From Oculina patagonica (lineage: Eukaryota): a DNA stretch of 64,000 nt. Where the stretch lies: the NCBI RefSeq assembly GCF_052425735.1, contig NC_135761.1, forward strand, positions 62,496,001-62,560,000, in the 5' to 3' direction. This document shows positions 45,950-64,000 of this stretch, one piece after another. The position numbers and the translations under genes were made by a program. The notes beneath the pieces are model-generated. The model was not told the DNA's origin and made no database searches. It worked only from the letters and a program-made list of their open reading frames with translations. Numbering within the stretch: position 1 is the first letter of the stretch; each line of letters begins with the position of its first letter.

Positions 45950-46037
45950 TTACAGGTCATGTTAACCGGCCAAAGAGATTTTAGCTTGGTCACATGTGGT
46001 TTCTTACCAGCCAAAACATTGAAAATAGAAATTTTAA

Positions 46038-48014
46038 GAGGCTATATCTGTAATAGTGGTCTGCCCGATCTGGCTTGTTAAATAGATTTCGCTCTTTTCT
46101 AGTGTGTTGCAAGACTTTCATGTACTTATACTAAAAACACAATTCACTTGACCGGATCATTAATTTTTTTCGAGTTTTTAAGGATTTTCGGTTGACCCGA
46201 ACGAGCACTTGTAACGACCACTGTCAAGGCTTAAATTTACCACAACTTTGAAAATTATTTAAAAAAGAACTAACAACTTCTGTACCAAACAAACACTTAA
46301 CAGCCTGTTAAATTATGTCTTTTTAATTTATCACACCAACTTTCACGAACATTGAGCTCGAATCAAGCTAGCAGCAAAACATTAATGACACCCCTATCAC
46401 ACACCTTGATGAAACACTTGAAAACGGCTCAGTTTCAAACTTTATTTTTAAAAAGTGAGGCGGTCTACTTCAATCAAACCAACGCAGCCGAAAAGTAGAT
46501 GTAATAGAAAATGTTCCTATCGAAAAAAACCTTTTGGTATCGTCTAAATGAAATATTTACAGCTGTGTAAACTTGCCCAATTTCGAAGATCTTCATGTTT
46601 ACAGCCATTTTGAGGGACTCGTCAGGACGAGGAGTTTCATCAACTGGCCTCGCAGACATACCTCACACCTTCAGAAATAAACAAAGATTAGATATAAATG
46701 CAGTGCAGATCAACTGAAAGAGAATAAATCGTGTTTAAAAATGGAAGCTCGACTTACATTTCAATGATTTCTACGGGCGTAAGGTCATTCTTGTTCGAAT
46801 TTCGCTTGATGATTCCACAACAAATAACAATATTTGACACGCAGACTTTGACTGAATGTAGCGTTTGAATCAGTTAAAGGTAGTAACATCGTGCTTTCCC
46901 TTCTTTACCGGCGTACAGCGAAGTTGTTTTCACGACAAAACAGCAAGCATCAGGTAAAGAAGACCAAACTGACATGTTTATCGATTGGTCGGTTATATAC
47001 TTCATGTATGGAGTACCGTTGTGTACCGTATGTGTACCGTATAGTGCCTCATACATGAAGTAGTGACCGACAGGCCGTTTCTTCAGCTGTTTCTTCGAGG
47101 TTCAACGTTTTGCGATGGAAAATCTTTGCTGTACGCCAGTAAGGAAGGAAAGCACAAAGTTACTGCCTTGAGCTGATTCATAGGTTACATTAAGTCGAAG
47201 TTTGTATGTCAAATATTGTTATTTCTAGTGGAATCATCGAGCGAAATTCCAATAGTAACAACCGTACTCCCGTAGACGTCCGTAACAGTCAAAATGTAAG
47301 TCGAGCTTCCATTTTTAAACACGATTTATTCTCTTTCAGTTGAACTGCACTGCATTTATATCTAATCTTTGTTTATTTCTGAAGGTGTGAGGTATGTCTG
47401 CGAGACCAGTTGATGAAACTTCTCGTCCTGACGAGTCCCTCAAAATGGCTGCAAACATGAAGATCTTCGAAATTGGGCAAGTTTACACAGCTGTAAATAT
47501 TTCATTAAGACGATACCAAAAGGTTTTTTTCGATAGGAACATTTTCTATTACATCTACTTTTCGGCTGCGTTGGTTTGATTGAAGTAGACCGCCTCACTT
47601 TTTAAAAAATAAAGTTTGAATCTGAGCCGTTTTCAAGTGTTTCATCAAGGTGTGTGATAGGGGTGTCATTAATGTTTTGCTGCTAGCTCGATTGGAGCTC
47701 AATGTTCGTGAAAGTTGGTGAGATAAATTAAAAAGACATAATTTAACAGGCTGTAGTGTTTGTTTGGTACAGAAGTTGTTAGTTCTTTTTTAATTAATTT
47801 TCAAAGTTGTGGTAAATTTAAGCCTTGACAGTGGTCGTTACAAGTGCTCGTTCGGGTGAACCGAAAATCCTTAAAAACTTGAAAAAAATTAATGATCCGG
47901 TCAAGTGAATTGTGTTTTTAGTATAAGTACATGAAATTCTTGCAACACACTAGAAAAGAGCGAAATCTATTTAACAAGCCAGATCGGGCAGACCACTATT
48001 ACAGATACAGCCTC
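46038..48014. mobile_element. ~2-kb fully palindromic foldback element with TTAA TSD (Kolobok-like termini)
   Basis: TTAA|GAGGCTATATCTGTAATAGTGG ... CCACTATTACAGATACAGCCTC|TTAA. Arms are near-identical for ~720 bp, then diverged but alignable up to a ~40-bp loop near 47010-47050. Confidence 0.9.
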
Positions 48015-48204
48015 TTAAACTCCCATTCATTTCTGCTGTTACTGTTTTGGCTGCATATTCTTAAAAAGATCACTTCATAATGCCCTTGTTACATCTAAAA
48101 AGATGTGAAAGAGACAGGTCAATCAAGAAGTTGTTTTCTGAAGTACACTGTAAATACGTTAACATTTAAAATATAAACTTTGCTCATTTGCAGCTTTTCT
48201 TGAT

Positions 48205-51939: not shown

Positions 51940-52141
51940 CGCCAGTAGTTTAAATGGACACACACTAGGTCCCGATGAACCGTAAGCTTTACCTTTAATG
52001 TAAGCGAAATCTACTCGTAACGAGAACTAGATACAATCAAGATGGCGGACGCCAAGGAACAGCACGCGCGGGCTTTTATACCACAATAAACGCCGCTGGC
52101 CGACTACAGCGAAATGCCGCTGAACAACTAGCCTACTGGCG
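51940..52141 (-). mobile_element. Putative 3' LTR of the Gypsy-like element
   Basis: Preceded on the minus strand by a polypurine tract AGAAGGAAAGAAGAAG (~52160-52145). Bounded by the inverted repeat CGCCAGTAG/CTACTGGCG; contains TATAAAA and ATTAAA. Confidence 0.65.
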
Positions 52142-52339
52142 TGGCTTCTTCTTTCCTTCTAAAATAAATAATCATGCAAACAAAGAAACTCTAGTCTAGG
52201 TGACGAGTTGATATGAAATACACACACAGAGAAATTACTACTGACTGAAGGACAGACTCTGAGCTACGAGTTAGACAAGAAAACAAACTTAATCAGTGAA
52301 TTGACCAGCTAAATGTCTAAATGTCTAGAATCGTCCGAG

Positions 52340-53883
52340 CTACTTTAATTCGACTACATAGTCTTGAAGATGCTGCGGGAGACGCCGCCGCCGGGTAGGG
52401 CGCTTGTTCACCGCAGGGCTAACAATTGGAGAGAGGGCAGGGATAACCTCGACGTCATCTGGCGAGCCGGGTTGGCTATCCTCATCATAACTCGGGACAT
52501 CTTCTGGTGGTACAGAAGCGGAAGGTGGAGACGATATCTCGATAGGGATCCCTGGGGCAGGCGGAGGTAACGGTTGACTTTCTGGGGGAGGTTCCTCGTC
52601 AATAGGAAGTCCACGACCATCAGCGGGTAAGCCCTGGTCGACACCAACAACGTCAGGATCGCAGTCGCTGGAGTCTTCGTCGTTGAGGTACCTGGGCGTG
52701 TGTACACTGAAGGGGGCGACCTTATAGCACTCATTCTTCTTCACGCGGTACGAAACGTTTCGTAGCTGTGAGCCAACGAACTTGCGAACATTACACCACT
52801 CACGGTCAACTGAGACAACGAGGTAACGGTCACGACTTTGGGACTTGTTACGGTCACAGTAGAGGTAAACTAAGTCACCAACAGATATTGAAGGAGAGCT
52901 ACGCGAGACACCACGGGGGGCTTTCGACGTTTCACTGTGAGGATGGTTTTCCAGTCTTTGCAGATGTTGCTCGCGTATTAGCGCCTGATCTGTTAGGGGA
53001 ATCTGAGAGTTGGTAAACTGGTCTCGTTGAGTCCACATTTCTCTAGCAGATAGGCCGCGGGAGCGGATTCTTGAGTTCAGGTTGGCAGTGGCTACGGACA
53101 GAGTCCTAGGAGAGACAGGACCACCTTCCGGTTGCAACCGCAGGAGCTCGTGTTCCAACTCTTGGATTGCTTTTTCAGCGACTGGATTCTTGTTCTGATT
53201 TTTCACCCGACCAATCTCAAGGCTAATCTTGTGTTGCAATAGAAGCTGGTCACTCACAAGGGCTCTGAAGGCGGGAGCTGGATCACACCGAATGACAGCG
53301 TTAGGTCCATCAAGGGGTCGCAAGCCGACGCATAATTGGATTAACCCATCACGTAAGGTCCCATGCTTCTCGTCTACCACGAGGAGGGTTGAAGTATAGG
53401 AAGTGACGCACTCTCGGAGTACCAAAATAAGTTGGCGAGACTGCTTCAGGATATCGGCTGCGAAAGATACACCCACTGCTGCCGGAGGGTCAGAAGTTGA
53501 CTGTTCTATAACAGCGTGCGGGGCGTGGCGAAGTGCAGCGCATGAATGACAACCAAGGGAAACACGCTCTATTGCCTTGTCCAGGTCAAGGGCGAAGAAG
53601 TAGCGGCTGACAACCTTCTTGAGTTGGAGACTTGATGGGTGAGACAACCTGAGGTGCAAGGCTGTCAGTAAACCATCTAAGACCTGTCTGGGCACTATGA
53701 TACAATCCCGCGAAGGAGCCAAAGGCTCAGTCTTTTTCACGACTAAGAGGCCATCACTGGAGATAGAAGCTACTGACAAGTACCTTTTTACGTCCTTAAT
53801 GTTAGTCAGCTTCTTGGAAGGACGAGTCCCTTGTATTAGGTGAGCATGTGTTCGACGTAAGTCCGCGCACTCAGATTGGATAG
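52340..53883 (-). CDS. Ty3/Gypsy-like pol, integrase portion (disrupted element)
   Basis: HHCC zinc finger (HLRLSH...CHSC), DDE core (FAADI, IRCDP, NPVAEKAI), SH3-like VGDLVY region and a typical C-terminal RPTRRRRLPQHLQDY. The ORF-track start at 53932 lies inside the inserted LTR. Confidence 0.85.
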
Positions 53884-54921
53884 TGTCACGGTATAAACTC
53901 GGCCCTTGTGATTCGAATATTAGAAAACACATCGAAACTCGGAAAATGGTAATTGTAAAATATATTTAACCTTACGATGTCATCTGTTGATTTAGCTTTG
54001 ACCATAAGCAAGATTCATTACAACTTATTTACCTTCCTTATGTGAATTTCCGATCTATTAGTGATCTTATCGTAAATCAGTTTCGCTCATCCGCAATCTA
54101 CTAGGAATTGCAAACTAAGCAAAAACCTTAGCAATAAGCTCTGTTGTTTGCACAACAGAGCACTCGAATATAAATCAAGCACGTACTATAAGGAAAGTCT
54201 TGCAGAGGTCATTGTAAATAGAGAATCATCAATATAATTATACAACTTAAGATAAAAATGAACTTCTTATTGATCTTTAATGCAGTTTCTCGTTGTATTT
54301 CGCTTTATGTCAGTAATCTAATTATATTCAGACTTCTGTAAAATGCAAGGTTAGCATATTACAAGTAACACTATTATTTGCCTTTATCTTAAGCAATATC
54401 CTGAAACTTATTTTGAACGGAAGATTTAAGTGTTAAGCAATTTCCTTCCTAGAGATCGACATTGATAAACTCAATGTAGTTTTTTATTTAGCCTTGAACT
54501 TGTATTTTCACCTGTCATTATTATCACACTTTAAACATATATAAGAAGCCCTTTTCTGTACGACATTTGAATTACCTTGGAATTACCTTTGAATTACCTT
54601 CGAATTACCTCAAGCTACCACCGAGCTACCATTGAGTTACCTACAGCTGTCAAGAGTTGTTTAGTCCAGATGCAATAAAGAAGATAGAAGAAGTTCCTAA
54701 ACCTTGAGTGTCTTACTGCCGCTGAAATGCTGTCCGACTGATCTAGAAGCTAACGACCCTGTACCTCTGGCATTGAGTAACGAGTGCCGTGCAGCGAGCC
54801 TGTGCTCTACCTAGCTTTCTCCCCCGTTCAAGCCGTCCAAACCGTCCGTTAAACAGCGCCCCAGCTGGTTATCCGTTCCCGTGCATTTAGTGCACTTTAG
54901 AGCCAAAAACCTATCGTTACA
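53884..54921 (+). mobile_element. Solo LTR (~1.04 kb) inserted into the Gypsy pol
   Basis: Termini TGTCACG...CGTTACA, flanking duplication (A)TAG, TATATAA ~54538, AATAAA ~54674. Removing it rejoins pol as ...NTWLSIQSEC... Confidence 0.8.
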
Positions 54922-56000
54922 TAGACAGCCAAGTATTTCGACTTGTGAAAGGAAGGTTTTTCTGACCAGATAAGACATCCTGGGCAGATAGGTGTCGAAC
55001 GACAGACTCCTCAGCTTGGGTGATGAACTTGCACACCTGACAAGAGGGATCAGAGCAGTCCGGTGCATTGCGGCTTGCAAAGTCAGAAGGTAAAATTGCA
55101 GCACCAGCAACATGCCTCACGTTGGCTTGGAAGCGGCTGACAGTAGACAAATAGGTCGACACTCGTGGGCTAGCAGAAAACTCTCCCCTGCACATTTTCT
55201 CGAAGGCCTGGACACAAGGCTTACTGTCGGTGAGCACACAAGCCTTGTGCTTGGATTGTATTATGTACGGACTGAAGTGTTTTATAGCAACCCCAATTGC
55301 AAGAGCTTCAACTTCACACGGTAGCCAAGACACTTGATGAGCACGCAATTTGGCACTAAAGAACCCAGCGAGGGCTAGGTTGTCACCCCTCGAGATGTAG
55401 AGAGTGGCAGCGATTCCGGGTCTCTTGACAGCAGCGTCTGTCACAATCCATAATTGGTCATCGGGCTTTGGAAGAGTGATTGTGCGGCTGGACGCAAGGG
55501 AAGCTTGGGCAGACTTGAAGGCCTCAGTAAGATGTACGGACCACACGATGTCATCCTGAGACTGTTTCCCAGCTACGGCCTCGTCAAGGGGGGCTAATAG
55601 AGAAGAACAATGTGGAACAACACGAGCAAGGACCTTGAAAGCACCAATGAAGGACTTCATGCCACTAACTTTACTGGGAGCTAGGACTGCAGGAGGACAG
55701 GGTTGAGACGCGATGAGGGTTGGCGCGAAGAGTGCCTTGGGACCAAGTCCAACCCAGGATAGAAGTAGTTTTTGGATTGATGATGGTCTTCGACGCCGAG
55801 AGGCGTAGGCTAGCTTTATGAAGAGCTTGGAGAACAGAAGCCCAATTTCGGAGTAACTCGTCTGGGCTGTTGCCCCCACAGTACAGATCATCTGCTATCT
55901 TGGCAACGATACAAGCCTGGAGGAGGTCACCCAAGACGCGACACATGAGCTCTTCCAGTGCGGTTTCTGAGCCAGGTATACCCATGGCCGACCGGGCATG
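54922..56000 (-). pseudogene. Ty3/Gypsy-like pol, 5'-truncated RT / RNase H portion with a frameshift
   Basis: AMGIPGSETALEELM, KIADDLYCGG, ILGW primer grip, LWIVTDAA, WLPCEVEAL, LTDSKP, SDFASR. Frameshift near 55680, consistent with a 4-nt AGCT insertion. Confidence 0.85.
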
Positions 56001-56134
56001 GGATCTCGGTATACCTAGGCGTTTAGTGTTTCCACACACATTGTTAACTAAAAACACTGGTATAGCTTGATTGTCGAGTTATCAAACAATAGTCCAAATA
56101 GAGTGGCCGTTGTCGTCGCCGTGTCGTCTTTTTT

Positions 56135-56734
56135 TCAGTCCTCTTCTTCTTGGTCTTCGTCATACTCCAATTTTCGTCTCAACTTTTTGCCTTTGGCCCA
56201 ATCTTCCCAACCGGGTAATGGTTTCAGTTTCTCGGCTTCCGTTTTTCGCACAGCTGGCTTTTTCCTCGTCTTTAGTTTCTCTTCTAAACTCTTGAATCTC
56301 TCTGCCAATGTCGGTTTGCCCGCAGGTGCCGTTTTTGCTTTCTTTGTCGCCTTCGGAGTGACTGTGGGAGGTGATTTCTTGGCACTCCCTTTTATGAGTT
56401 GTTTCAACATGGTCTCCACGGGTCCCGTCACCAAACCTACATTCTCCAACTCCTCCTCCTCCTCCTCCGCTTCTTCGCCCGGCCGTCTGGCTGTTACTCC
56501 TCCCATGGGAAATTGACGTATCCGTTTGGTCAAACGAGCCCGTTCGCGAGCGAGAGGTTTCACTCGTGCCACGGCGATACCATCGGGAACGGATTTATCT
56601 TTTAACAGCAAGTGACTTTCGGCTGCTATGCGAGCCGCTTTGTTCAACAATGCATTGTCCGTGATTTCGCCTTTGTAATATTGCACCAAACGATTCAAGT
56701 CTTTAGCGGGAACCATCACGACTTCCTCGGTCAT
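56135..56734 (-). CDS. Viral hypothetical protein, 199 aa, Lys-rich with acidic tracts
   Basis: Intact ATG ORF overlapping the upstream gene; last gene of the viral run. Confidence 0.7.
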   Translation of the reverse strand: MTEEVVMVPAKDLNRLVQYYKGEITDNALLNKAARIAAESHLLLKDKSVPDGIAVARVKPLARERARLTKRIRQFPMGGVTARRPGEEAEEEEEELENVGLVTGPVETMLKQLIKGSAKKSPPTVTPKATKKAKTAPAGKPTLAERFKSLEEKLKTRKKPAVRKTEAEKLKPLPGWEDWAKGKKLRRKLEYDEDQEEED

Positions 56735-57065
56735 CTTTGAAGTATTCTTCCAACAAGCTTTCGTAACACCCTTGCCAGTAACGAACTTCCTCTTCTAACT
56801 TGGCTATGCGCCTTTTCAAGTCGCTTCTCGATGTACACTTGTCGCTACACTCCTTGCACAGTACTAGGGTCTTTCCTTCCGGAGTCTCTTGCCTCTCACG
56901 AATGCAATCTTCGCACTCTGCGTCGTATTTTAAAGCCAAATAGTCATGATTGACGCGGGCGTAGGCTTCGTGCCAATGGTCTGCTCTTTTTTCCCACTCT
57001 GCTTCTCTGTCCGCCGATTCGTGTAACATTTTCATCATTGTCTGGAGGGTGTTTTGCAGAGACAT
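56703..57065 (-). CDS. Viral hypothetical coiled-coil protein with CxxC...CxxC
   Basis: CEDC and CKEC between heptad-like segments. Start at 57065 or 57038 (ATGA overlap with the upstream stop). Confidence 0.65.
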   Translation of the reverse strand: MSLQNTLQTMMKMLHESADREAEWEKRADHWHEAYARVNHDYLALKYDAECEDCIRERQETPEGKTLVLCKECSDKCTSRSDLKRRIAKLEEEVRYWQGCYESLLEEYFKDDRGSRDGSR

Positions 57066-57370
57066 GCTTGGTAGATCTGTTGCAGTCCTTTCCAAAACCC
57101 GCTACCCTTCTGTGACAGGAGACCTTCTCGCCTTCTCTTCAACGAGTTTCTGCGCTTACCCAGTTCGCGCAAGACTTTCTTATATCGTCGCAGCTTGGCG
57201 GTGATCGGTGGACTGAGCGGAATGCGGTTCTTGAGCAAATTCAATACCATCTCACTCACGGCGTTGATCTGATCGGCGTTGGCGTGCTGTAACATCTCTT
57301 CTCGCTTGAACCGATTGGCTTCTCTCAGAATGCTCCCCAAGAACGGACGCTGTCGACGTAATCGATTCAT
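57035..57370 (-). CDS. Basic viral protein of a type commonly seen in Polintons (putative core protein)
   Basis: LQHANADQINAVSEMVLNLLKNRIPL...LLSQKGSGFW; ATG overlaps the upstream TGA. Confidence 0.7.
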   Translation of the reverse strand: MNRLRRQRPFLGSILREANRFKREEMLQHANADQINAVSEMVLNLLKNRIPLSPPITAKLRRYKKVLRELGKRRNSLKRRREGLLSQKGSGFWKGLQQIYQACLCKTPSRQ

Positions 57371-57570
57371 ACTTCCCACGGGGCTGGACGTCGGTTGTAA
57401 CTACCGGTGACGCCCTTTGCCCCCATTCTCTTATAGCGTTTGTCCTTTCCCAATTTATAACCCAACTTGCCGGCAAACTTGAGTATGTCCAATAAACCCT
57501 CTCCTCTCCACACGGGGCCTCTTTTAGGTTGTTTTCGTCTTCTCCTTACTATCTTTCTTCCTCGCACCAT
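57367..57570 (-). CDS. Small Arg/Lys-rich putative core protein
   Basis: Basic N-terminus, WRGEG motif, amphipathic LLDILKFAGKLGYKLG. Confidence 0.65.
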   Translation of the reverse strand: MVRGRKIVRRRRKQPKRGPVWRGEGLLDILKFAGKLGYKLGKDKRYKRMGAKGVTGSYNRRPAPWEV

Positions 57571-57638
57571 CTTGTCGCAGAATGCAGTCTGTTGTAACTA
57601 CCGGTGACGCCCAATGCCCCCATCCTCTTATAGTGTTT

Positions 57639-57845
57639 TTATCTCTTTTTCTTTCGAGTGGCTGCATCCAAGGCTTTCTTTGCACCCCAACCTGCAGCAC
57701 CCGATGCAGCACCCAAAGCGATTGCTTTTCCACCCGCGATCAAAGCTGGTATCAAGGCTGCTAAGGGTAAAATACCACCCTTCTGTCCTATTCTTCTCCT
57801 GCCAGCACGTCTCCGCCTTTGCGTCACACGTTTCTTTCTCCTCAT
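57639..57845 (-). CDS. Adenovirus pX/Mu-like core protein precursor
   Basis: RRRRAGRRRIGQKGG-ILPLAALIPALIAGG resembles adenoviral pX (Arg-rich, then xxGG-ILPLLIPLIAAAIG, recalled from memory). Confidence 0.72.
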   Translation of the reverse strand: MRRKKRVTQRRRRAGRRRIGQKGGILPLAALIPALIAGGKAIALGAASGAAGWGAKKALDAATRKKKR

Positions 57846-57849
57846 GGTC

Positions 57850-58071
57850 CTATCGTCGTCGCGGTCTACGTCTATAATGATTTACATTATCCATTATCCC
57901 TTTAAATCCTTGACTGGCCAATTTACCACCCAACGTGAAGAATGTGGGTGAAGGACCCGAGAGAAACATGCTGGCCCCCTCGGCTATCTTGTCCACCAAA
58001 CGATGTTTACGTCTCGCGAGAGCTCCACCTCGCTGCCTCCTTCTTCTGGCCTTACGTTTCGTTCTTCCCAT
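57850..58071 (-). CDS. Small Arg-rich putative core protein
   Basis: MGRTKRKARRRRQRGG-AL...; basic at both ends; packed between its neighbours. Confidence 0.65.
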   Translation of the reverse strand: MGRTKRKARRRRQRGGALARRKHRLVDKIAEGASMFLSGPSPTFFTLGGKLASQGFKGIMDNVNHYRRRPRRR

Positions 58072-58089
58072 CCTACCATAACTGTCACT

Positions 58090-58584
58090 TCAGACGGGGG
58101 TACCTTCGGATTTATCGTGTTGTCGTTCGTACGCTTGCACGTACTTGTCGGCCACGGGCGGCGTGAAATCGGTGATCGTGTCATCTAGAGTTTGCATCTT
58201 GATCAAGAATCCTTCTAGTTCGTCCATCGGAAGACCGCGCGCGTACGTTCTCAATTCGATCAACGTCTTGTCGTAGCTGGTGTAGGCAAAACGACATACG
58301 TCCACTTTGAACGAATATTTCTTGAAATCGTTCCAGCCCTTGACCACAGTCCCAGCTGAAGTTAGGCATGCCACAATAACACTATTTTCTGTAAGGGAAC
58401 CCGCAATGATACCCGCTGCCACGATGAATAAAGCCAAAGCATTCAATGAAGCATGACACCACTTAAAATGGTAAAACATTTGACGATGACACCACCACTT
58501 TTTGTGGTAAAAGGTATACAATCCGTCCAATCTGTGTAACAGGTCTGGATCCAAGTTCGTCTTTGACCCGTTTAGTAGGGACAT
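58090..58584 (-). CDS. Viral two-TM-helix membrane protein, 164 aa
   Basis: Hydrophobic hairpin LNALALFIVAAGIIAGSL / VIVACLTSAGTVV flanked by helical segments. Confidence 0.7.
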   Translation of the reverse strand: MSLLNGSKTNLDPDLLHRLDGLYTFYHKKWWCHRQMFYHFKWCHASLNALALFIVAAGIIAGSLTENSVIVACLTSAGTVVKGWNDFKKYSFKVDVCRFAYTSYDKTLIELRTYARGLPMDELEGFLIKMQTLDDTITDFTPPVADKYVQAYERQHDKSEGTPV

Positions 58585-58586
58585 CT

Positions 58587-58988
58587 TTAATGGCTCACTC
58601 TCGTCGAGGTACGACGAACGGTCGGTCGTCCCCCGTCTTTATAGGTCGTAGTGATGGTGTTTGTCGTGGTGATGCCTGCGATGCGACGTCCAGCCGCCAC
58701 TTGACGTTGATCGTTGAACAGCATTTGCAATTGACGTTGCATGTCGTCTTGATTCAATCGGTGTGGACCACCCGTTAGCGTTCCTTGACCTGCAGGTACG
58801 TTGGACCTCGAGGAAGAAGGTCTCAAAGTCCCCGTACCCACTGCAGGAGACGGTAATTGATCCAAGTACCGTCTTAGGACTATGGGGTCGACTCGATCCA
58901 ATGTCTGTTCCAATCCCCCTCGGTTGACGTTGACGATCGGAATGGCACTAGGACTGGTTCCTACTCCTGCTGGCGAATGTCTTGACAT
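58587..58988 (-). CDS. Viral hypothetical protein, 133 aa
   Basis: Intact ATG ORF tiling exactly between its neighbours; Thr-rich C-terminus. Confidence 0.6.
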   Translation of the reverse strand: MSRHSPAGVGTSPSAIPIVNVNRGGLEQTLDRVDPIVLRRYLDQLPSPAVGTGTLRPSSSRSNVPAGQGTLTGGPHRLNQDDMQRQLQMLFNDQRQVAAGRRIAGITTTNTITTTYKDGGRPTVRRTSTRVSH

Positions 58989-59200
58989 GTTTTTCTAGCT
59001 CTCTCTTCTAGTGTCTGGATCAATTCGCTGAAGTAAGTCTCGTTATATTCTCTCACGAATTTCCACATCTGTCGCTTTTCGGCCAAATGTAGCACGGTTT
59101 GCATGGCCTCGTAGTCCATGTCCTCTTCTCTCATACGCTCGAAATGACGACTGCACAAGTCCAAGAACGCGAGCCACACGTGATCGTTACGTACGAACAT
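58961..59200 (-). CDS. Viral hypothetical protein, 79 aa
   Basis: ATG ORF overlapping the ATPase stop and the next start. Confidence 0.6.
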   Translation of the reverse strand: MFVRNDHVWLAFLDLCSRHFERMREEDMDYEAMQTVLHLAEKRQMWKFVREYNETYFSELIQTLEERARKTCQDIRQQE

Positions 59201-59852
59201 CTGGAACGAATCTGTAACATCTCATGCATCCCTCGTCTTTTAAGAGGTGGCTAAAAATCCGTCTGTCGTCGCCACTGGCAGGGTGTAGATCCAATACCAT
59301 GTAACCAAAGGGTCTTTCCGTCGTCTTGGTGTAGACGTCCATCACATCTTGCCATCGGGAGGGAAACGCTTGTAACAGTAAATTCCTCATGCCCAATTGA
59401 TCGCGAGGGTTCTTGAAAGCCACGATGTAATGCGCATTTCGAGAAATGCTCTTGGCGTATTTTCCCGGCGGAAACATGTCTTGACACAAGTACAGGACGG
59501 TGATGTTCCTGTGGTGGGAAAGTTTGGTGAACAGATCCAATACTCTCTTGTCGTTTCCTCCTTCTTCCATCAGATCGTCCAATACCATCACCCCTCCACG
59601 GGGAAACCATTTGGTCAAATCTACTTCTTCGGGAATCCCTTCGTGAAATTTCACGCCTCGCTTTTTCATGTTCGCGAAACCGTCTTGCCAAGCCCCAAAA
59701 CAGTAATGAATGGTCTCAGGGGGTGTACTAAACAACTCTTTTGAGTGATTCAAAAGTACCGACTCGGTAAAACAAGTCTTTCCGCAGCTAGAGGGGCCCA
59801 CGATCAAAATGCTAGAGGGCATCCGAAAGCTAAAGGCTTCACCGCGCTCCAT
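59187..59852 (-). CDS. FtsK/HerA-superfamily (A32-like) DNA packaging ATPase
   Basis: Walker A GPSSCGKT, Walker B MVLDD, SHHRNITVLYLCQ, ISRNAHYIVAFKNPRD. Probable ATG at 59852. Confidence 0.92.
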   Translation of the reverse strand: MERGEAFSFRMPSSILIVGPSSCGKTCFTESVLLNHSKELFSTPPETIHYCFGAWQDGFANMKKRGVKFHEGIPEEVDLTKWFPRGGVMVLDDLMEEGGNDKRVLDLFTKLSHHRNITVLYLCQDMFPPGKYAKSISRNAHYIVAFKNPRDQLGMRNLLLQAFPSRWQDVMDVYTKTTERPFGYMVLDLHPASGDDRRIFSHLLKDEGCMRCYRFVPDVRT

Positions 59853-59859
59853 GGCGAAA

Positions 59860-59975
59860 TGACATTCGTCAAAAAACGAGCAATGATATAAGCATGTTGC
59901 AGAAAAAAAGTCTGCAACGAATCCCGATCTCCCGAGCGACAGACGACACACACCTTATTTATTTCAACGTTTTTA
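59860..59975 (-). promoter_or_regulatory. Viral intergenic region: poly(A) signal for the upstream block and TATA-like element for the ATPase block
   Basis: AATAAA overlaps the protease stop with a second AATAAA downstream; CTTATAT lies ~35-40 bp upstream of the ATPase ATG. Confidence 0.45.
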
Positions 59976-60554
59976 TTTGTCATCTCCCAACAACAAGTGT
60001 CTTACACCGCAGAGAGACGGTTCACAATCCTGATGGTATTCCATCTTACAAATTTTGTGCCACGACCTTTCCTTCGAGATCAATTGCTTCAACATTTGCC
60101 CAACTTTATGATCATTGTACACGTAATCGTGTTTCTTGAATCTCGCTTCGAATTGACTCATGCTACGTCCTTCGGCCCTATCGATGAGATACATCAACGC
60201 GTAATCGCCGCAGCTCTGACTGAACAACGATTGTAGACTCTGTCCGTTGCGCTCCACGTACTTCCAATGAGCGTCCAACCAATCTTGCAACGGTTGCGCC
60301 GTCTGGTACACCTCCAGGGGTAAGGCGTAACTGTCCAACACTTCGCACACGTTTCCATTCGTCCACAACGCGATCCAATGCCGACCGCGCATGTAGTGAG
60401 GATCGGTGTTGACGATGTACCCGCGGGCTTCCGTCTTGAATGGTTTGCGAGGTAATCGATCGCAGGCCACTGTCCCGTAAAAATAAGGTTTCAACGACGG
60501 GTGATGTCTGGCCAACTGATCCAATTGCACGTTATTCAAAGTCACTTTCTCCAT
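59973..60554 (-). CDS. Adenain/Ulp1-like (clan CE) cysteine maturation protease
   Basis: IVNTDP...GRHW (His), LDSY (Asp), LQSLFSQSCGDY (oxyanion Gln, catalytic Cys). Confidence 0.92.
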   Translation of the reverse strand: MEKVTLNNVQLDQLARHHPSLKPYFYGTVACDRLPRKPFKTEARGYIVNTDPHYMRGRHWIALWTNGNVCEVLDSYALPLEVYQTAQPLQDWLDAHWKYVERNGQSLQSLFSQSCGDYALMYLIDRAEGRSMSQFEARFKKHDYVYNDHKVGQMLKQLISKERSWHKICKMEYHQDCEPSLCGVRHLLLGDDK

Positions 60555-60556
60555 CA

Positions 60557-61960
60557 CTAACGCTGGTACACGTCGTACAACACGGCTTTGTTCTTGTCTA
60601 TCTCCAAGAGATTCTCAAACTCTCCGTACACGATGATGGTCAAGTTCACAGCTGGGTTGGCTCCAAAGTTCAGCTCTATTAGTAGATTTCCGGCTTGCTT
60701 GGGGTTCATCCTGTAACTGTCCACGCATCCATTGGCCACGTTGTCGAACACGAACAACGTGCAATTCTTTCCTTGTCCCCAATCGTCACCTCTCACCATG
60801 TTTCCTTGCTGCTTGCACAGGCATCCGGTGGCTTGCAAGAAACGGTGGTACCCTCTGAGATCTTTGGTGGCATCGTTGTGAACCAGTTCTAGCGTCTCGT
60901 AAGGATACTCTTCTCCTCCCACGAGTTGTTTTATGCTGCTCATTCCAAACTTCTGAAAACAGAAGGGATCGTTGACCACGTTCCCGGTGAAGGCTGTGGA
61001 CAGTACCATACCCACGATCACGCGGTTGGGAATTCTTCCTTGGAACAAGTTGGTGCATTCGTACCGTCGTTGATCTCCCTGCATGTTGAAGGTCCGAATC
61101 TCGCTTCTCACGGTCGGGTAACTCACCACTTGACTCTTGGTGGTCATCTCATCCATCAGTCTCCTGTACGTCGTGGGATTGAGACGCACTTGACACAGGT
61201 ACATTCGAACTTTGACTTCCTCGGCCGTCAACTTTCCTGCCAGACCCACTCCGTTCAAGAACACGTCGGGAGAATTGAAGTACATCTGTATTCCTATCTG
61301 CACTCTGGGTACCAACAACTTGCTCAGATGAAACACTTCGATGAGGGGTTTGAAACGCAACACGTGTCGCTTGCCTTCCGTGTAATTGGCTTGTTCTGCT
61401 TTAGAGTTCTTGAGAGCCTCCTTGTGATTGGCGGTCAGGGCTACATAGTCTGCGTGTCCAGCTCCAGCGTTGGCTGCAGTGTTCGTGTTATTGTCCGTCC
61501 ACGTGGCTGGGAAATCGATATGATTGTACCATCCTTGAGGTTTCAAGATGGTTTCTCCATCACGTCTGTCGTAATTCAGCAACGTTTCCAAGAAGGCTCT
61601 GTAATGGTACGTGTCCGTCTGGGGACTGATGAGAGTACCGTTGAGACGCACGCTGATTTGCTTGAACAGAGAATGGGCTAGATTGTTGACGGGCCACAGC
61701 TTGTCGGCAGCTGCCACGTTCTCATCGTTGTCTTTCTTCAGTTGCAATTCTACCTCGAAAAAGCTACGGCTGAGATCGATGTAATCTTCTTGGGGGTCGA
61801 TCTGAAACTCCACCGGATTGATGCCTGTGGTGTAGGTCTGAACGGGGACCATCCGATACGACGAGACGCTGACGTCTGTCGGTGGTACGGCGAATAGATC
61901 CAATCGAGGATTGGCCTCGCGTCTCGACTGCGGGTAGGCGCTCGAGATGGTTTCGGTCAT
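60557..61960 (-). CDS. Major capsid protein (double jelly-roll, hexon-like), ~467 aa
   Basis: LDLFAVPPTD, YIDLSRS, PVNNLAHSLFKQISVRLNG, YRAFLETLLNY, FQGRIPNRVIVGMV, AFTG...PFCFQ are typical Polinton MCP motifs. Probable ATG at 61960 overlaps the upstream stop. Confidence 0.9.
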   Translation of the reverse strand: MTETISSAYPQSRREANPRLDLFAVPPTDVSVSSYRMVPVQTYTTGINPVEFQIDPQEDYIDLSRSFFEVELQLKKDNDENVAAADKLWPVNNLAHSLFKQISVRLNGTLISPQTDTYHYRAFLETLLNYDRRDGETILKPQGWYNHIDFPATWTDNNTNTAANAGAGHADYVALTANHKEALKNSKAEQANYTEGKRHVLRFKPLIEVFHLSKLLVPRVQIGIQMYFNSPDVFLNGVGLAGKLTAEEVKVRMYLCQVRLNPTTYRRLMDEMTTKSQVVSYPTVRSEIRTFNMQGDQRRYECTNLFQGRIPNRVIVGMVLSTAFTGNVVNDPFCFQKFGMSSIKQLVGGEEYPYETLELVHNDATKDLRGYHRFLQATGCLCKQQGNMVRGDDWGQGKNCTLFVFDNVANGCVDSYRMNPKQAGNLLIELNFGANPAVNLTIIVYGEFENLLEIDKNKAVLYDVYQR

Positions 61961-62193
61961 CGTCTTCTCTTCCTTCTTGCACTGCGCTTCCGTAAGGTCT
62001 GTATCCAGTCGTAGCCAGGAGGCTTTCTGACCTCGGGACCTATCCACCCGCCCTTTTGTACTTTTCGTCGTCGGCTCTTTTGTCCCAACAAGGCCTGGTT
62101 CAAAAGTGCCAGTGAGAATCCTTCTCCCCGCTGTCTGACGGGGGCGCGTTTGGATCGGACCAATCTAGACGATCGCGAGTAAACGGGATTCAT
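61957..62193 (-). CDS. Small basic putative core protein
   Basis: Arg-rich with QRGEG and QKGG motifs; ATGA overlaps at both ends. Confidence 0.65.
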   Translation of the reverse strand: MNPVYSRSSRLVRSKRAPVRQRGEGFSLALLNQALLGQKSRRRKVQKGGWIGPEVRKPPGYDWIQTLRKRSARRKRRR

Positions 62194-62447
62194 TTTTCGG
62201 CAAAGATGTCGTTCAGTTTTCTCTTGACGTTTCGTTCTATGACGTTTTTCAGTTTGCGTTTCACGACTCGTTTAGGACCACTCTTGGCTCCTTGACCCGC
62301 TTTACGAATGCGGTCCGCGACGCCGCGCCCACTCTTAAATCCTCTCACGGCTCCACCGAGAGACTCTCTCACGATGTCGGCCAAAAATCCGTTCCCCTCT
62401 TGAGGTGGAGGATCCGGTGTGAAACGCGTCAGGGCACCGCCTCTCAT
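62190..62447 (-). CDS. Small basic putative core protein between mCP and MCP
   Basis: MRGG and QEGNG motifs, Lys/Arg-rich, ends ...NDIF; ATGA overlaps at both ends. Confidence 0.7.
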   Translation of the reverse strand: MRGGALTRFTPDPPPQEGNGFLADIVRESLGGAVRGFKSGRGVADRIRKAGQGAKSGPKRVVKRKLKNVIERNVKRKLNDIFAEK

Positions 62448-63475
62448 GTTCGCTTGATATGTAAGGTCACGATCGTGTTGCCTTCGCCAAAATCCACCAG
62501 TTTACCTGTAGTCTCGCTCACTTGCGTTTCAATAATGTCCACGATCTGGTTGCGGAGTGGAATATATTGTATGTGGAGAGGTTCAAAGTACTTGATACCT
62601 TTTCCTTCACGTTGAAAGTGAATTTCCCGCAACAGATCCGTGACTTGATTTCCCACAACGGAACTACCACCCACGTCTGAGTAAACGAAAAGCGTACGCG
62701 ATGCATCTCCAATCACTTTTTGGAAGGCTCTGTTGAGTTTCACAAAGCGCCAGTTGCAATAGCAACTCAAGAAAAGCTGTCCATTCTCAACAACCCAGAA
62801 ATTTTTCTTGCCCTCTCCAAAATCATCCACGTCTATGGGATCGGGTATCGTAGCCTGGTGGCATTCCGGCTTCAGGTTCGGCCCGAGAAACACGTTTTCT
62901 TTCTCGTCCTTTTTTACCCATCCCATGTCAAAGGCCAAATCCTCGTTGAAAGACATGTAATATGGGACGCCTTCAGTTTTCACTTCCGAGACGTCCAAGT
63001 TCGAGTTGTCGAGGACTAGTTCTTCACCTTCCCACTTGAAAGTATATTCCCACTGCTTTCCATTATCGGGCGACTTGGTCAAGTCTCCCACGATACGCTT
63101 GTATTCTTTGACTTGATCGAACTTGAAGACCAGGGCTTTCATGAAACTGAGGCCATCCACGATGTTGTCGTCATATAGAATGTCCTGGAACGTCAGATCG
63201 GTGGTCACCGACTTGCTTTGCACGCGACCCTCGTTGTCTTTGCGCTTGAGCATCCACTGGGCACTCAAGAGAGGAAACTTGAACGACTTAAAGCGAGTTA
63301 AGTCGATGCTGGCATCTGGCACGGAAATGCTACTCAATCCCACTTTCCAACCGGTTCCTTCCAATCGTAGCGGGTGAGGTAATCGCACCTTGAAAGAGTT
63401 TGCTCTATTCTCTGGAAACTCGGTTCCGCTGCTGTGACTGGGTAACGTGACGTAAAATCCTTCCTCGTGGCTCAT
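62444..63475 (-). CDS. Minor capsid protein (single jelly-roll, penton-like)
   Basis: FYVTLPS.S...FPEN.ANSFKVRLP.PL.L...WKVGL..I N-terminus and LFVYSD...VGN....LLR...Y.PL...G..V.F..G...VTLH C-terminus. Confidence 0.88.
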   Translation of the reverse strand: MSHEEGFYVTLPSHSSGTEFPENRANSFKVRLPHPLRLEGTGWKVGLSSISVPDASIDLTRFKSFKFPLLSAQWMLKRKDNEGRVQSKSVTTDLTFQDILYDDNIVDGLSFMKALVFKFDQVKEYKRIVGDLTKSPDNGKQWEYTFKWEGEELVLDNSNLDVSEVKTEGVPYYMSFNEDLAFDMGWVKKDEKENVFLGPNLKPECHQATIPDPIDVDDFGEGKKNFWVVENGQLFLSCYCNWRFVKLNRAFQKVIGDASRTLFVYSDVGGSSVVGNQVTDLLREIHFQREGKGIKYFEPLHIQYIPLRNQIVDIIETQVSETTGKLVDFGEGNTIVTLHIKRT

Positions 63476-64000
63476 GATTTTTTTAGAGCCGTCTTCTCGA
63501 TCCAGCTGTCGTACTTGTCTGGCCAGCCTTTCCAGTGCACCAAGACTTTATTTCCTTTTCGTTTGACGATCTTGTCCACCCTGAAGACATCGTCGTCGGA
63601 CACTGCGACTTTTTGTAGATCTTCCTTGTAAAACGTACCGCGAAGGGGGGTGTCGTCCAACTCTTGGATCTTGTAAGTCGTGACGGGTGGTCCCCGACGC
63701 ACCTCTCGTATCACAAACACTTCTTCGGTCCAGCCGGGTAAATACCCTTTCTCGAACGTGCGAAATTTCTTGTTCAATCTCACGCGTTCTCCTACTTTTA
63801 GCGGGGTTTTTCGTTCTCTTTTACCCGACGACAATCTCTTCGCGTACAGACGTTCCCACACTTTTCCTTCGTTGCTCGCATTCACTGTCTCGGGGCTGGT
63901 GCCGATGCTACGATGGTGGGATCCGTTGTAACCTCTCACCAAGGCCTGGAGTACAGGTAGGTAACTGAGCGTGTTCTTGGCGGTAAAGTATCGGTACATG
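63472..64000 (-). CDS. Retroviral-like (c-)integrase, C-terminal part with chromodomain (5' end outside the window)
   Basis: YNGSHHRSIGTSP, KVGERVR, FEKGYLPGWTEEVF, GTFYKEDLQ, then chromodomain VDKIV...VLVHWKGWPDKYDSWI. Confidence 0.92.
   Translation of the reverse strand, partial: MYRYFTAKNTLSYLPVLQALVRGYNGSHHRSIGTSPETVNASNEGKVWERLYAKRLSSGKRERKTPLKVGERVRLNKKFRTFEKGYLPGWTEEVFVIREVRRGPPVTTYKIQELDDTPLRGTFYKEDLQKVAVSDDDVFRVDKIVKRKGNKVLVHWKGWPDKYDSWIEKTALKKS

Follow-up and report, generated by a model that had tools for sequence, protein, structure and literature searches.

Gene content of the element

The window, that is, the whole 64,000-nucleotide stretch of DNA analysed here, contains the virion and integrase arm of a left-truncated 19.6-kb copy of a young Polinton/Maverick family in the genome of a stony coral, Oculina patagonica (Table 1). 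Positions 56135-63999 hold a contiguous run of 16 ATG-initiated minus-strand ORFs, each 60 aa or longer and free of internal stops; the initial annotation had rightly described the ORFs as contiguous, with no evident frameshift or premature stop in the integrase part, mCP, MCP, protease or ATPase, and had counted 15. Its calls of MCP, mCP, protease and ATPase hold as well, with fold matches backing the two capsid proteins and motifs backing the two enzymes. The MCP model (pLDDT 90.7) matched the capsids of PBCV-1, SGIV, Sputnik and mavirus (E ~1e-15 to 1e-12), the Foldseek match to that of PBCV-1 having E 1.5e-15. The best matches of the mCP model (pLDDT 84.5) were the pentons of mavirus, Sputnik and adenovirus, with E values from 4e-8 upward and TM-scores that are low (~0.3). 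The ATPase possesses GPSSCGKT19, VLDD90, CQ123 and SRN137, and the protease HW59/LDS73/Q105-108/CGDY115; Pfam matches of both are weak and below cut-off, and a PDB sequence search reached only E 0.63 to ASFV S273R. Among the 29 copies examined, protease length is 193 aa in the window copy and two others, 189 aa in 25 copies and 188 aa in one. The integrase (PF00665, E 4e-13, plus a chromodomain) has its DDE motifs at residues 78-181, beyond the window end and therefore invisible to the initial annotation, whose remark that catalytic motifs are preserved applies within the window to protease and ATPase; the integrase motifs are intact in L031.

Table 1. Features at the locus; positions without a prefix are those of the window, and L031 and L032 positions lie beyond its end
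Feature	Position	Strand	Basis or remark
5'-truncated Gypsy-type LTR retroelement, not virus	51940..56021	-	RT/RNase H 54917-55985, integrase 52340-53932
Host DNA between Gypsy piece and element	56022..56101		Contiguous with right flank at empty site
Left 6-bp target-site duplication (TSD), AGTGGC	56102..56107	+	Same hexamer after right terminus, L032:3689-3694
Broken left end, ~first 18 codons of PLA2X, then host DNA	56108..56163	-	Start codon inferred
199-aa ORF, Lys-rich, acidic tract, no family	56135..56734	-	ORF call, profile search
120-aa coiled-coil ORF, two CxxC pairs	56703..57065	-	Weak Filament match, below cut-off
111-aa basic ORF, QKGSG motif then hydrophobic stretch; candidate protease-processed core protein	57035..57370	-	Inferred
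67-aa Arg/Lys-rich ORF, WRGEG motif, amphipathic-looking stretch; candidate core/membrane-active peptide	57367..57570	-	Inferred
68-aa Arg/Lys-rich ORF, QKGG motif; pX-like candidate	57639..57845	-	Inferred
73-aa Arg/Lys-rich ORF, QRGG motif; candidate core protein	57850..58071	-	Inferred
164-aa ORF, SLATT-like two-helix membrane protein	58090..58584	-	PF18181 E 3e-4, below curated cut-off
133-aa ORF, no function recognised	58587..58988	-	ORF call, profile search
79-aa ORF, no function recognised	58961..59200	-	ORF call, profile search
Packaging ATPase (A32/FtsK-like), 221 aa	59187..59852	-	Walker A/B and downstream motifs; Pox_A32 only E 0.09
Adenain-like cysteine protease, 193 aa	59973..60554	-	Peptidase_C5 E 0.014; motifs
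Major capsid protein (MCP), double jelly-roll, 467 aa	60557..61960	-	Structure model; 27 genomic copies at 99-100% aa
78-aa Arg/Lys-rich ORF, two QxGxG-like motifs; candidate core protein	61957..62193	-	Inferred
85-aa basic ORF, QEGNG motif; candidate core protein	62190..62447	-	Inferred
Minor capsid protein (mCP, penton-like), 343 aa	62444..63475	-	Structure model matches
rve integrase with chromodomain, C-terminal half in window	63472..64000	-	Full gene 362 aa, L031:472-1560
pPolB, single open 1,306-codon frame	L031:7565 to L032:2485		PF03175 above cut-off; Exo and Pol motifs
Right terminus, one proper AGTAGT end	L032:3688

Past the integrase come three small ORFs, a GRF-zinc-finger ORF, a 173-aa ORF (sole atlas lead Maelstrom, 0.88), tandem repeats, pPolB and the right terminus, for a total length of 19,581 bp. 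Extension past the window for pPolB and TIR, as proposed in the initial annotation, recovered the polymerase and the right terminus; the left TIR is absent. In the N-terminus of pPolB, CCARA (residue 178) and HYH (residue 276) are candidates for the catalytic Cys and His of the OTU domain known from alpha adintoviruses; neither Pfam nor the atlas search gave a match for this N-terminal domain. Pfam matches above cut-off are rve, chromo, DNA_pol_B_2 and PLA2; PLA2X (PF08398, E 7e-12) is found in the family and missing from the window copy. Gene content, capsid folds, the AGTAGT terminus and the 6-bp TSD bear out the Polinton/adintovirus-like assignment, and the family is an alpha-adintovirus-like polintovirus.

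The clipped left end

In other copies the PLA2X gene comes after the 199-aa ORF; the window copy is cut at 56108 and is short of ~1.2-1.5 kb at its left end, comprising that gene and one TIR. No TIR, filler or microhomology was found at the break. On the plus strand the left end reads CGTTGTCGT, an echo of the normal AGTAGT terminus; as a background for such end-like sites, 52 of 7,893 positions match NGTNGT and five match NGTNGTNGT. An empty paralogous site (G000:C4:62594975-62595466) carries a single AGTGGC and, combined with the perfect TSD and a count of four codon changes private to this copy out of 1,864, upholds the earlier proposal of a recent integration.

The same copy had been called intact. 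An intact Maverick has been defined by core ORFs, both TIRs and a TSD (Barreat and Katzourakis 2021, PMC8097293); lacking the left TIR and PLA2X, the window copy fails this definition and is a poor candidate for excision or for complete particles by itself. Each of the 16 ORFs in the window is open, as are the integrase and pPolB, and the catalytic motifs are in place, as expected of an intact provirus still making particles on its own. With these losses, however, excision and replication in cis are largely refuted, the copy could at most supply protein in trans, and such a provirus is very improbable.

The neighbouring Gypsy piece is locally truncated and interrupted; it carries insertions of 1,041 bp and 4 bp, plus 22 nt of filler (56000-56021). 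It is nevertheless 98.5-99.8% identical to seven other copies over aligned parts, so that for this piece the earlier description of the adjoining host transposons as heavily decayed does not hold. Insertion of the Maverick into the Gypsy element was ruled out because the 86 bp of host DNA separating them matches the empty site.

The clipped end is most likely integrase-directed. That an internal AGTAGT-like site served as the end has nearly an even chance, cutting of the left TIR at its boundary with incomplete repair is somewhat less probable than that, and a chance deletion or misassembly is improbable. When four runs were compared, viral contigs of three started at 56108 and one listed loose end continued into PLA2X; in two runs, contigs with the empty site are present, though this may be the paralogous locus. 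No second one-ended copy with a TSD was found, the other two unpaired copies being explained by an assembly gap and a nested insertion. We considered whether truncation and mosaics alike could be assembly artefacts from collapsed or mis-joined repeats, given that the locus sits within a tandemly duplicated region, that one copy ends in an assembly gap, and that the truncated junction, seen in the present assembly only, is absent among the matches listed for the four runs. However, the junction has no homology for haplotype mis-joining and restores an exact TSD, the polymerase classes described below turn up repeatedly at independent sites, each with a TSD of its own, and the junction of the pol-less copies recurs five times on five contigs, making such artefacts highly unlikely as the explanation.

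Polymerase classes and genome ends

The initial annotation had asked for the copy number, which is ~30 sister copies in the genome; family statistics rest on 29 copies examined. Paired AGTAGT...ACTACT termini are present in 26 of the 29, with TSDs matching at 6/6 positions in 24 and at 5/6 in two. For a 593-nt stretch of the 199-aa ORF, 33 of 36 genomic matches are at least 90% identical over at least 528 nt. The module from integrase to PLA2X is near-invariant across polymerase classes, and MCP genes that are ~99% identical across the family are joined to 6-7 pPolB classes (56-100% identical). Median MCP nucleotide identity is 99.21% both within classes (56 pairs) and between them (220 pairs). 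By contrast, the terminal 300 nt have a median identity of 75% within classes (113 pairs) versus 52% between them (238 pairs, a raw value). In 21 of 25 copies the two ends match each other at 95% identity or more, and terminal sequence at both ends tracks pPolB class, with the exception of two class-B copies that carry class-A inner repeats. Such linkage could stem from physical adjacency rather than co-adaptation. The switch points map to two zones, one ~100-400 bp ahead of the pPolB ATG and the other 200-300 bp beyond the stop codon of PLA2X. A pPolB next to a 53%-identical MCP agrees at 99% of amino acids, and at 95% of nucleotides over 4.6 kb, with the pPolB from a copy whose MCP is 100% identical. 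Of six outside pPolB loci examined as possible donors, two matched a swapped class, three did not and one gave no complete segment.

Ectopic recombination or gene conversion among integrated copies, in place of extrachromosomal replication, would have many near-identical substrates, a donor near its recipient and nested or tandem elements (the C1187 copy) to work with, and tandem accretion plus deletion has been proposed in a preprint (Barth et al. 2026, 10.64898/2026.10.13.758929). Yet a single ectopic crossover would mismatch the flanks, at odds with perfect 6-bp TSDs in 24 of 26 two-ended copies, and both TIRs change with the polymerase, needing two matched conversions per copy. We regard chromosomal mosaics of this kind as quite unlikely.

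Five TSD-flanked copies on five contigs share one deletion junction by which the polymerase is gone and an N-terminal ORF is kept, open over 155 or 166 codons. From its position, this ORF is probably the terminal protein.

Selection and lesions

The piN/piS ratio was 0.074 for MCP, 0.10 for mCP, 0.12 for the protease and 0.18 for the integrase, and judged by such ratios the MCP genes are under purifying selection. Private changes in the family number 149 synonymous and 107 non-synonymous plus 2 stops, versus ~21% synonymous sites, with 37 synonymous to 22 non-synonymous in MCP; several copies have an excess of non-synonymous private changes. Purifying selection on capsid genes would, on balance, most simply reflect packaging in particles, and it could also be ancestral inheritance.

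In a purely intracellular self-synthesising transposon, germ-line excision, replication, recombination and reinsertion would proceed without particles, and capsid conservation would be due to a recent burst from a functional ancestor. This is possible though unlikely. It fits a family observed as integrated DNA, in which pPolB is frameshifted in three copies, capsid or ATPase genes are lesioned in several and mCP has a stop in two, and in which one polymerase donor and its recipient share a contig and lie only ~150 kb apart. However, the synonymous excess extends even to private changes, in MCP as in the family, and TIR variants differ in nearly every copy, which is not the pattern of copies made from a single master element.

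Within the virion module, recombination was not established: 45% of site pairs are incompatible, and incompatibility does not fall off with distance (permutation p 0.38 and 0.10). CpG hypermutation found no support as the cause of incompatible pairs, non-CpG sites having equal incompatibility and CpG o/e being ~1.0. The stretch compared against sequencing runs is present in 20 of the 22 listed, none on record as RNA. Three runs marked 'RNA?' and one of DNA also extend over non-coding repeats; these four look genomic and thus say nothing on expression.

Discussion

Near-identical capsid genes combined with several polymerases and matching genome ends suggest recent copying and mixing outside the chromosome. 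All observations are of integrated DNA; particles, transcripts and free genomes were not among them. We propose that the elements would replicate as linear extrachromosomal DNA, protein-primed from the TIRs, and that co-resident genomes would recombine just upstream of the pPolB start, whereby polymerase and adjacent origin would arrive as one block. The opposite TIR would be rewritten from the new one by panhandle copy-correction, known from adenovirus work, and insertion of each product by the integrase would create a 6-bp TSD. The pol-less lineage, keeping its N-terminal ORF and class-A-like ends, would borrow pPolB in trans.

A Polinton family with extrachromosomal replication, polymerase/TIR swapping and likely packaging is probably the best overall explanation. 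A more far-reaching interpretation, which we offer tentatively and consider rather doubtful as a whole, is that the genome may preserve recent traces of a coral virus population that circulates and reassorts freely, with one capsid/integrase module across 6-7 replicon types of pPolB and cognate TIR, both ends rewritten per swap, a helper-dependent terminal-protein-only satellite, and a one-TIR copy left as the footprint of integrase-directed end cutting in excision.

In the papers on animal Polintons drawn on here, questions of particles, excision and replication rest on indirect evidence. The present family represents a natural series: one capsid module joined to multiple polymerase-origin pairs, a derivative that probably retains the terminal protein alone, and a one-ended insertion whose TSD is exact. 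On such a series, origin specificity, end repair and end cutting can be studied with sequence data and purified proteins, and it gives specific particle probes for a coral. The derivative without a polymerase would have to be complemented in trans, and the one-TIR copy with its perfect TSD, if produced by integrase-directed end cutting, is the footprint of a long-postulated excision step. The window copy alone is an ordinary truncated Polinton, and the family is of greater interest than the copy.

Both polintoviruses in corals and swaps of pPolB have been described before, and the family is of a known kind. The virus had been called probably undescribed, which stands at the element level only, coral polintoviruses having been surveyed (Stephens et al. 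2024, PMC11131425). NCBI has proteins 99% identical to the window MCP, hypothetical or 'F54H12.2-like', labelled Oculina patagonica. An IMG/VR scan with the MCP, by a method that detects close relatives only, gave two pattern matches and none confirmed. The word 'Oculina' is absent from the main text of PMC11131425, no literature joining Oculina and polinton was found, and neither a terminal-protein-only lineage nor a one-TIR copy with a TSD came up in the titles and abstract openings searched, which covered few subscription journals and no supplements.

The family resembles the stony-coral polintoviruses of Stephens et al., a survey of 30 coral genomes, in its integrated MCP/mCP/ATPase/INT/PolB with TIRs, many per genome, and in paralogous expansion; hallmark genes were expressed in Stylophora. 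That work deals with counts, MCP phylogeny and expression, whereas within-family polymerase/TIR reassortment and a pol-less lineage are described here. With alpha adintoviruses (Starrett et al. 2021, PMC8502044) it shares a pfam03175-type PolB, rve integrase, adenain, FtsK-like ATPase, hexon, penton and PLA2X. The Alpha/Beta module exchange reported there is between deep lineages, whereas exchange here is among ~99%-identical modules in one genome.

Vertebrate Mavericks (PMC8097293), which are 13-25 kb long with up to 38 intact copies per genome, likewise have TIRs and a 6-bp TSD, but there the ATPase sits with pPolB and gene order differs from that of the coral family. Purifying selection was taken as evidence for virions in that study, on between-species estimates far stronger than the coral within-family ratios. 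Nematode Polintons with pPolB1 or pPolB2 (Jeong et al. 2023, 10.1101/2023.08.22.554363) also indicate recent pPolB replacement among closely similar elements of one species; by contrast, they are reported as two classes at 16% identity with conserved TIRs, while the 6-7 coral classes are 56-88% identical to one another and TIRs change at both ends. Finally, the coral family is similar to mosaic Polisuvirus genomes (the Barth preprint), in which replicase and capsid modules often reassociate and which include rare contigs with identical capsid genes and different replicases, found in a dereplicated cross-lineage survey. In that account pPolB is linked to the DDE integrase, whereas the coral integrase travels with the capsid module, and pPolB and TIR are exchanged at mapped switch points.

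The virion module and its host

The window is G000:C4:62496001-62560000 of the 529 Mb host genome, and the Polinton/Maverick element within it continues past the window end. The initial annotation had counted 15 contiguous minus-strand ORFs; they are indeed free of internal stops and number 16. GC content is ~49% in the element, whereas most of the window before it lies at 32-45%. Because a Pfam search of the window ORFs was nearly blind on the module (only a chromodomain above cut-off; weak protease, ATPase and SLATT matches), the two capsid candidates were folded. The predicted MCP (467 aa; pLDDT 90.7, alignment of 95 rows) matches the major capsid proteins of PBCV-1, grouper iridovirus, Sputnik and mavirus (E 1.5e-15 to 1e-12), and the predicted mCP (343 aa; pLDDT 84.5, 107 rows) matches the pentons of mavirus, Sputnik and adenovirus (E 4e-8 and up, TM ~0.3). 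The motifs expected of the protease and the ATPase are present. A (Q/W)xGx(G) motif with hydrophobic residues after it is common to PLA2X and six small basic ORFs and occurs once elsewhere among 24 proteins scanned, making these candidate protease-processed core proteins. The 173-aa ORF may encode a DEDD-type nuclease: its atlas matches are eukaryotic clusters without a name (0.96-0.97) and, as a weak lead, Maelstrom (0.88).

The closest named MCP (99%) is an NCBI hypothetical protein labelled Oculina patagonica, and coral-metagenome runs contain the stretch 57000-63999, indicating a stony coral host. Between 57000 and 63999, 73-85% of sampled words occur in runs with four coded organism labels and 'coral metagenome'. 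In public gene models the MCP appears within hypothetical proteins of 798 aa, which are probably fusions to neighbours, or as 'F54H12.2-like' proteins; these elements are thus annotated as host genes.

Features in and beyond the window (L-numbers, stretches taken from the host assembly G000)
Feature	Position	Size	Remarks
Fold-back element	window 46033-48019	2 kb	near-perfect; arms 97-98% complementary; 98% copy in L037
Gypsy-type element	window 51940-56021		5'-truncated in RT; ends in 22-nt filler
Insertion in Gypsy piece	window 53880-54920	1,041 bp	no counterpart in other copies
Insertion in Gypsy piece	window 55679	4 bp	no counterpart in other copies
Minus-strand ORFs	window 56135-63999		contiguous
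Direct repeat	window 57390-57441, 57587-57638	52 nt	90%; overlaps 67-aa ORF end and gap before ORF
Integrase, full gene	continues past window end	362 aa	
Further features	past integrase		three small ORFs, GRF-zinc-finger ORF, 173-aa ORF, tandem repeats
173-aa ORF	L031:4107-4628	173 aa	LDLEG motif
pPolB	beyond window	1,306 codons	open; strand opposite to module
Right terminus	L032:3688		...CTTACTACT, then AGTGGC
Second PLA2X gene	L036:5500-7609; L046/L048	133 aa	divergent (~79%); in long TIRs of two pol-less copies
Inverted 199-aa ORF regions	G000:C5:16197807-16212566	~14 kb apart	two, on either side of an incomplete 89% MCP; may be a further long-TIR derivative

A young family under selection

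An MCP search of the genome, with 91 of 219 candidates scored, gave 27 copies at 99-100% amino acid identity and three at 91-97%. We examined 29 copies (the window copy, 26 others at 99-100% and single copies at 97% and 91%), leaving out a duplicate on contig C1263 and partial matches. Paired AGTAGT termini lie 18.5-21.3 kb apart in 26 of them, with TSDs matching at six of six positions in 24 and at five of six in 2; both TIRs, an open pPolB and six core genes without stop or frameshift are combined in 14/29. Every Polinton/Maverick feature tested is present in the family, in agreement with the class first assigned. MCP genes are 97.9-100% identical (25/27 copies, two being split by a stretch boundary). 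With the 97% and 91% copies excluded, piN/piS is 0.074 (MCP), 0.103 (mCP), 0.123 (protease) and 0.183 (integrase; 26 of the 27 copies). Of the private codon changes in seven genes, 149 are synonymous, 107 are non-synonymous and 2 create stops, against a share of ~21% for synonymous sites; non-synonymous changes outnumber synonymous ones in several copies, as expected under drift after insertion.

A second AGTAGT-terminated element sits inside the PLA2X gene of one copy (L102, contig C1187), forming a nested Polinton. A second, larger Polinton family (MCP ~25%, pPolB ~40% identical to the window family) occupies many contigs; its long open polymerase frames number in the dozens.

Exchange of polymerase and termini, and possible penton swapping

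Among the 27 near-identical modules, pPolB is 95-100% identical to that of the window copy in 10 and 56% identical in 4; another 7 belong to five more clusters, which stand at 74-79% and include one pair that is 88% alike; 5 lack pPolB and 1 is a nested tangle. In a pPolB tree of 28 rows, which omits C1176, L134 and the pol-less copies, the multi-copy clades are supported. MCP identity is equal within and between pPolB classes (median 99.21%; between-class maximum 99.93%), whereas the terminal 300 nt track the polymerase (median 75% within class versus 52% between, with no shuffled baseline). Left and right ends are at least 95% identical in 21/25 copies. Common sequence stops ~100-400 bp before the ATG of pPolB and 200-300 bp beyond the PLA2X stop, and two class-B copies keep class-A inner repeats, indicating that TIRs are themselves mosaic. 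In the termini of 26 copies, the AGTAGTAAGG..CGCT start is followed, as far as a CCAAT box, by ~15 nt that are hypervariable among copies and the same at both ends of any one copy. A donor pPolB, linked, judging from distance, to a 53%-identical MCP 4.6 kb away, shares 99% aa and 95% nt identity over 4,576 bp with the pPolB of a copy whose MCP is 100% identical.

The penton is only 51-52% identical in the 97% and 91% MCP copies (L113 on C1176 and L116 on C7:26.65), in which close integrase (96%, 77%) and MCP (97%, 91%) genes flank the divergent minor capsid gene, suggesting penton swapping. On C1176, pPolB and module share one strand. Within the virion module 45% of site pairs are incompatible, which suggests recombination there as well; it is not established, because no distance decay of this incompatibility was found.

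A lineage without polymerase

One junction recurs in five copies, each on a different contig; it joins pPolB codon ~154 to an inverted right arm that begins inside PLA2X and gives TIRs of 2-3 kb; a genome-wide pattern search for this junction returned exactly these five. Every one of them carries an individual TSD and an individual TIR variant that is 65-78% similar to most class-A termini. One deletion and its subsequent insertion at five sites imply that the lineage would have replicated with a borrowed polymerase. All five keep an open ORF of 155 or 166 codons that stops just short of a vOTU-like motif. Since a passage of PMC11071308 places the terminal-protein domain in the pPolB N-terminal region before vOTU, we read this ORF, by position, as a putative stand-alone terminal protein.

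The truncated left end of the window copy

Sister copies continue from the 199-aa ORF into a gene with a PLA2 domain (PLA2X; PF08398, E 7e-12) and the TIR. The window copy breaks off at 56108, ~18 codons inside PLA2X and 1.2-1.5 kb before class-A ends. With its left TIR missing it falls short of the two TIRs of an intact Maverick and is a truncated member, not the intact module of the initial annotation. AGTGGC lies just outside the break and identically at the right end, and both flanks meet across a single AGTGGC at an empty paralogous site, which lies 23 kb downstream of that right end. Combined with only 2 synonymous and 2 non-synonymous private changes, the exact TSD and empty site sustain the proposed recent integration. 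The left junction has neither filler nor microhomology. That a random deletion should end exactly at the TSD is improbable; we therefore favour an integrase-directed event. A cryptic internal end, reading CGTTGTCGT, may have been taken for an AGTAGT terminus; 0.66% of positions match NGTNGT and 0.06% match NGTNGTNGT, the pattern having been picked after the fact. Alternatively, a cut at the TIR boundary may have been followed by incomplete repair, analogous to the abortive gap repair of DNA transposons. Among the 29 copies, the window copy alone has one TIR with a TSD.

The neighbouring Gypsy piece is a separate element, 98.5-99.8% identical to 7 other copies and, on these identities, young. 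Its filler is similar to a fold-back copy of sequence close by, and 86 bp of host DNA separate the two truncated, facing elements.

Proposed mechanism and comparison with known systems

Given the anatomy, the TSDs, the reassortment, the covariation of the ends and the selection observed, we propose protein-primed replication outside the chromosome, during which a crossover in the spacer that precedes pPolB would exchange the polymerase together with its near TIR. Panhandle repair, a means of rewriting one TIR from the other, would then rewrite the far TIR, and the rve integrase would integrate the product. Packaging in particles is the simplest and, by our estimate, a somewhat probable reason for capsid conservation, which a passage of PMC8097293 takes as a sign of particles for vertebrate Mavericks; an intracellular route without particles is less probable. 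No close relatives of the MCP were confirmed in an IMG/VR scan, and no RNA record occurs among the listed runs that contain the stretch 57000-63999.

An incomplete literature search, on which supplements (e.g. the PMC11131425 genome list) may bear, did not find the combination of many recent classes of polymerase plus TIR on a single 99% module with a lineage that keeps just the putative terminal protein and a copy that has one TIR and a perfect TSD. Interest is carried by these family-level features, beyond what the initial annotation could see in the window alone. Coral polintoviruses with expressed hallmark genes are already described in PMC11131425, and the Barth et al. 2026 preprint (10.64898/2026.10.13.758929) presents module mosaicism as general. 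For nematode Polintons, a section of 10.1101/2023.08.22.554363 reports pPolB swaps, but the TIRs there are described as conserved.
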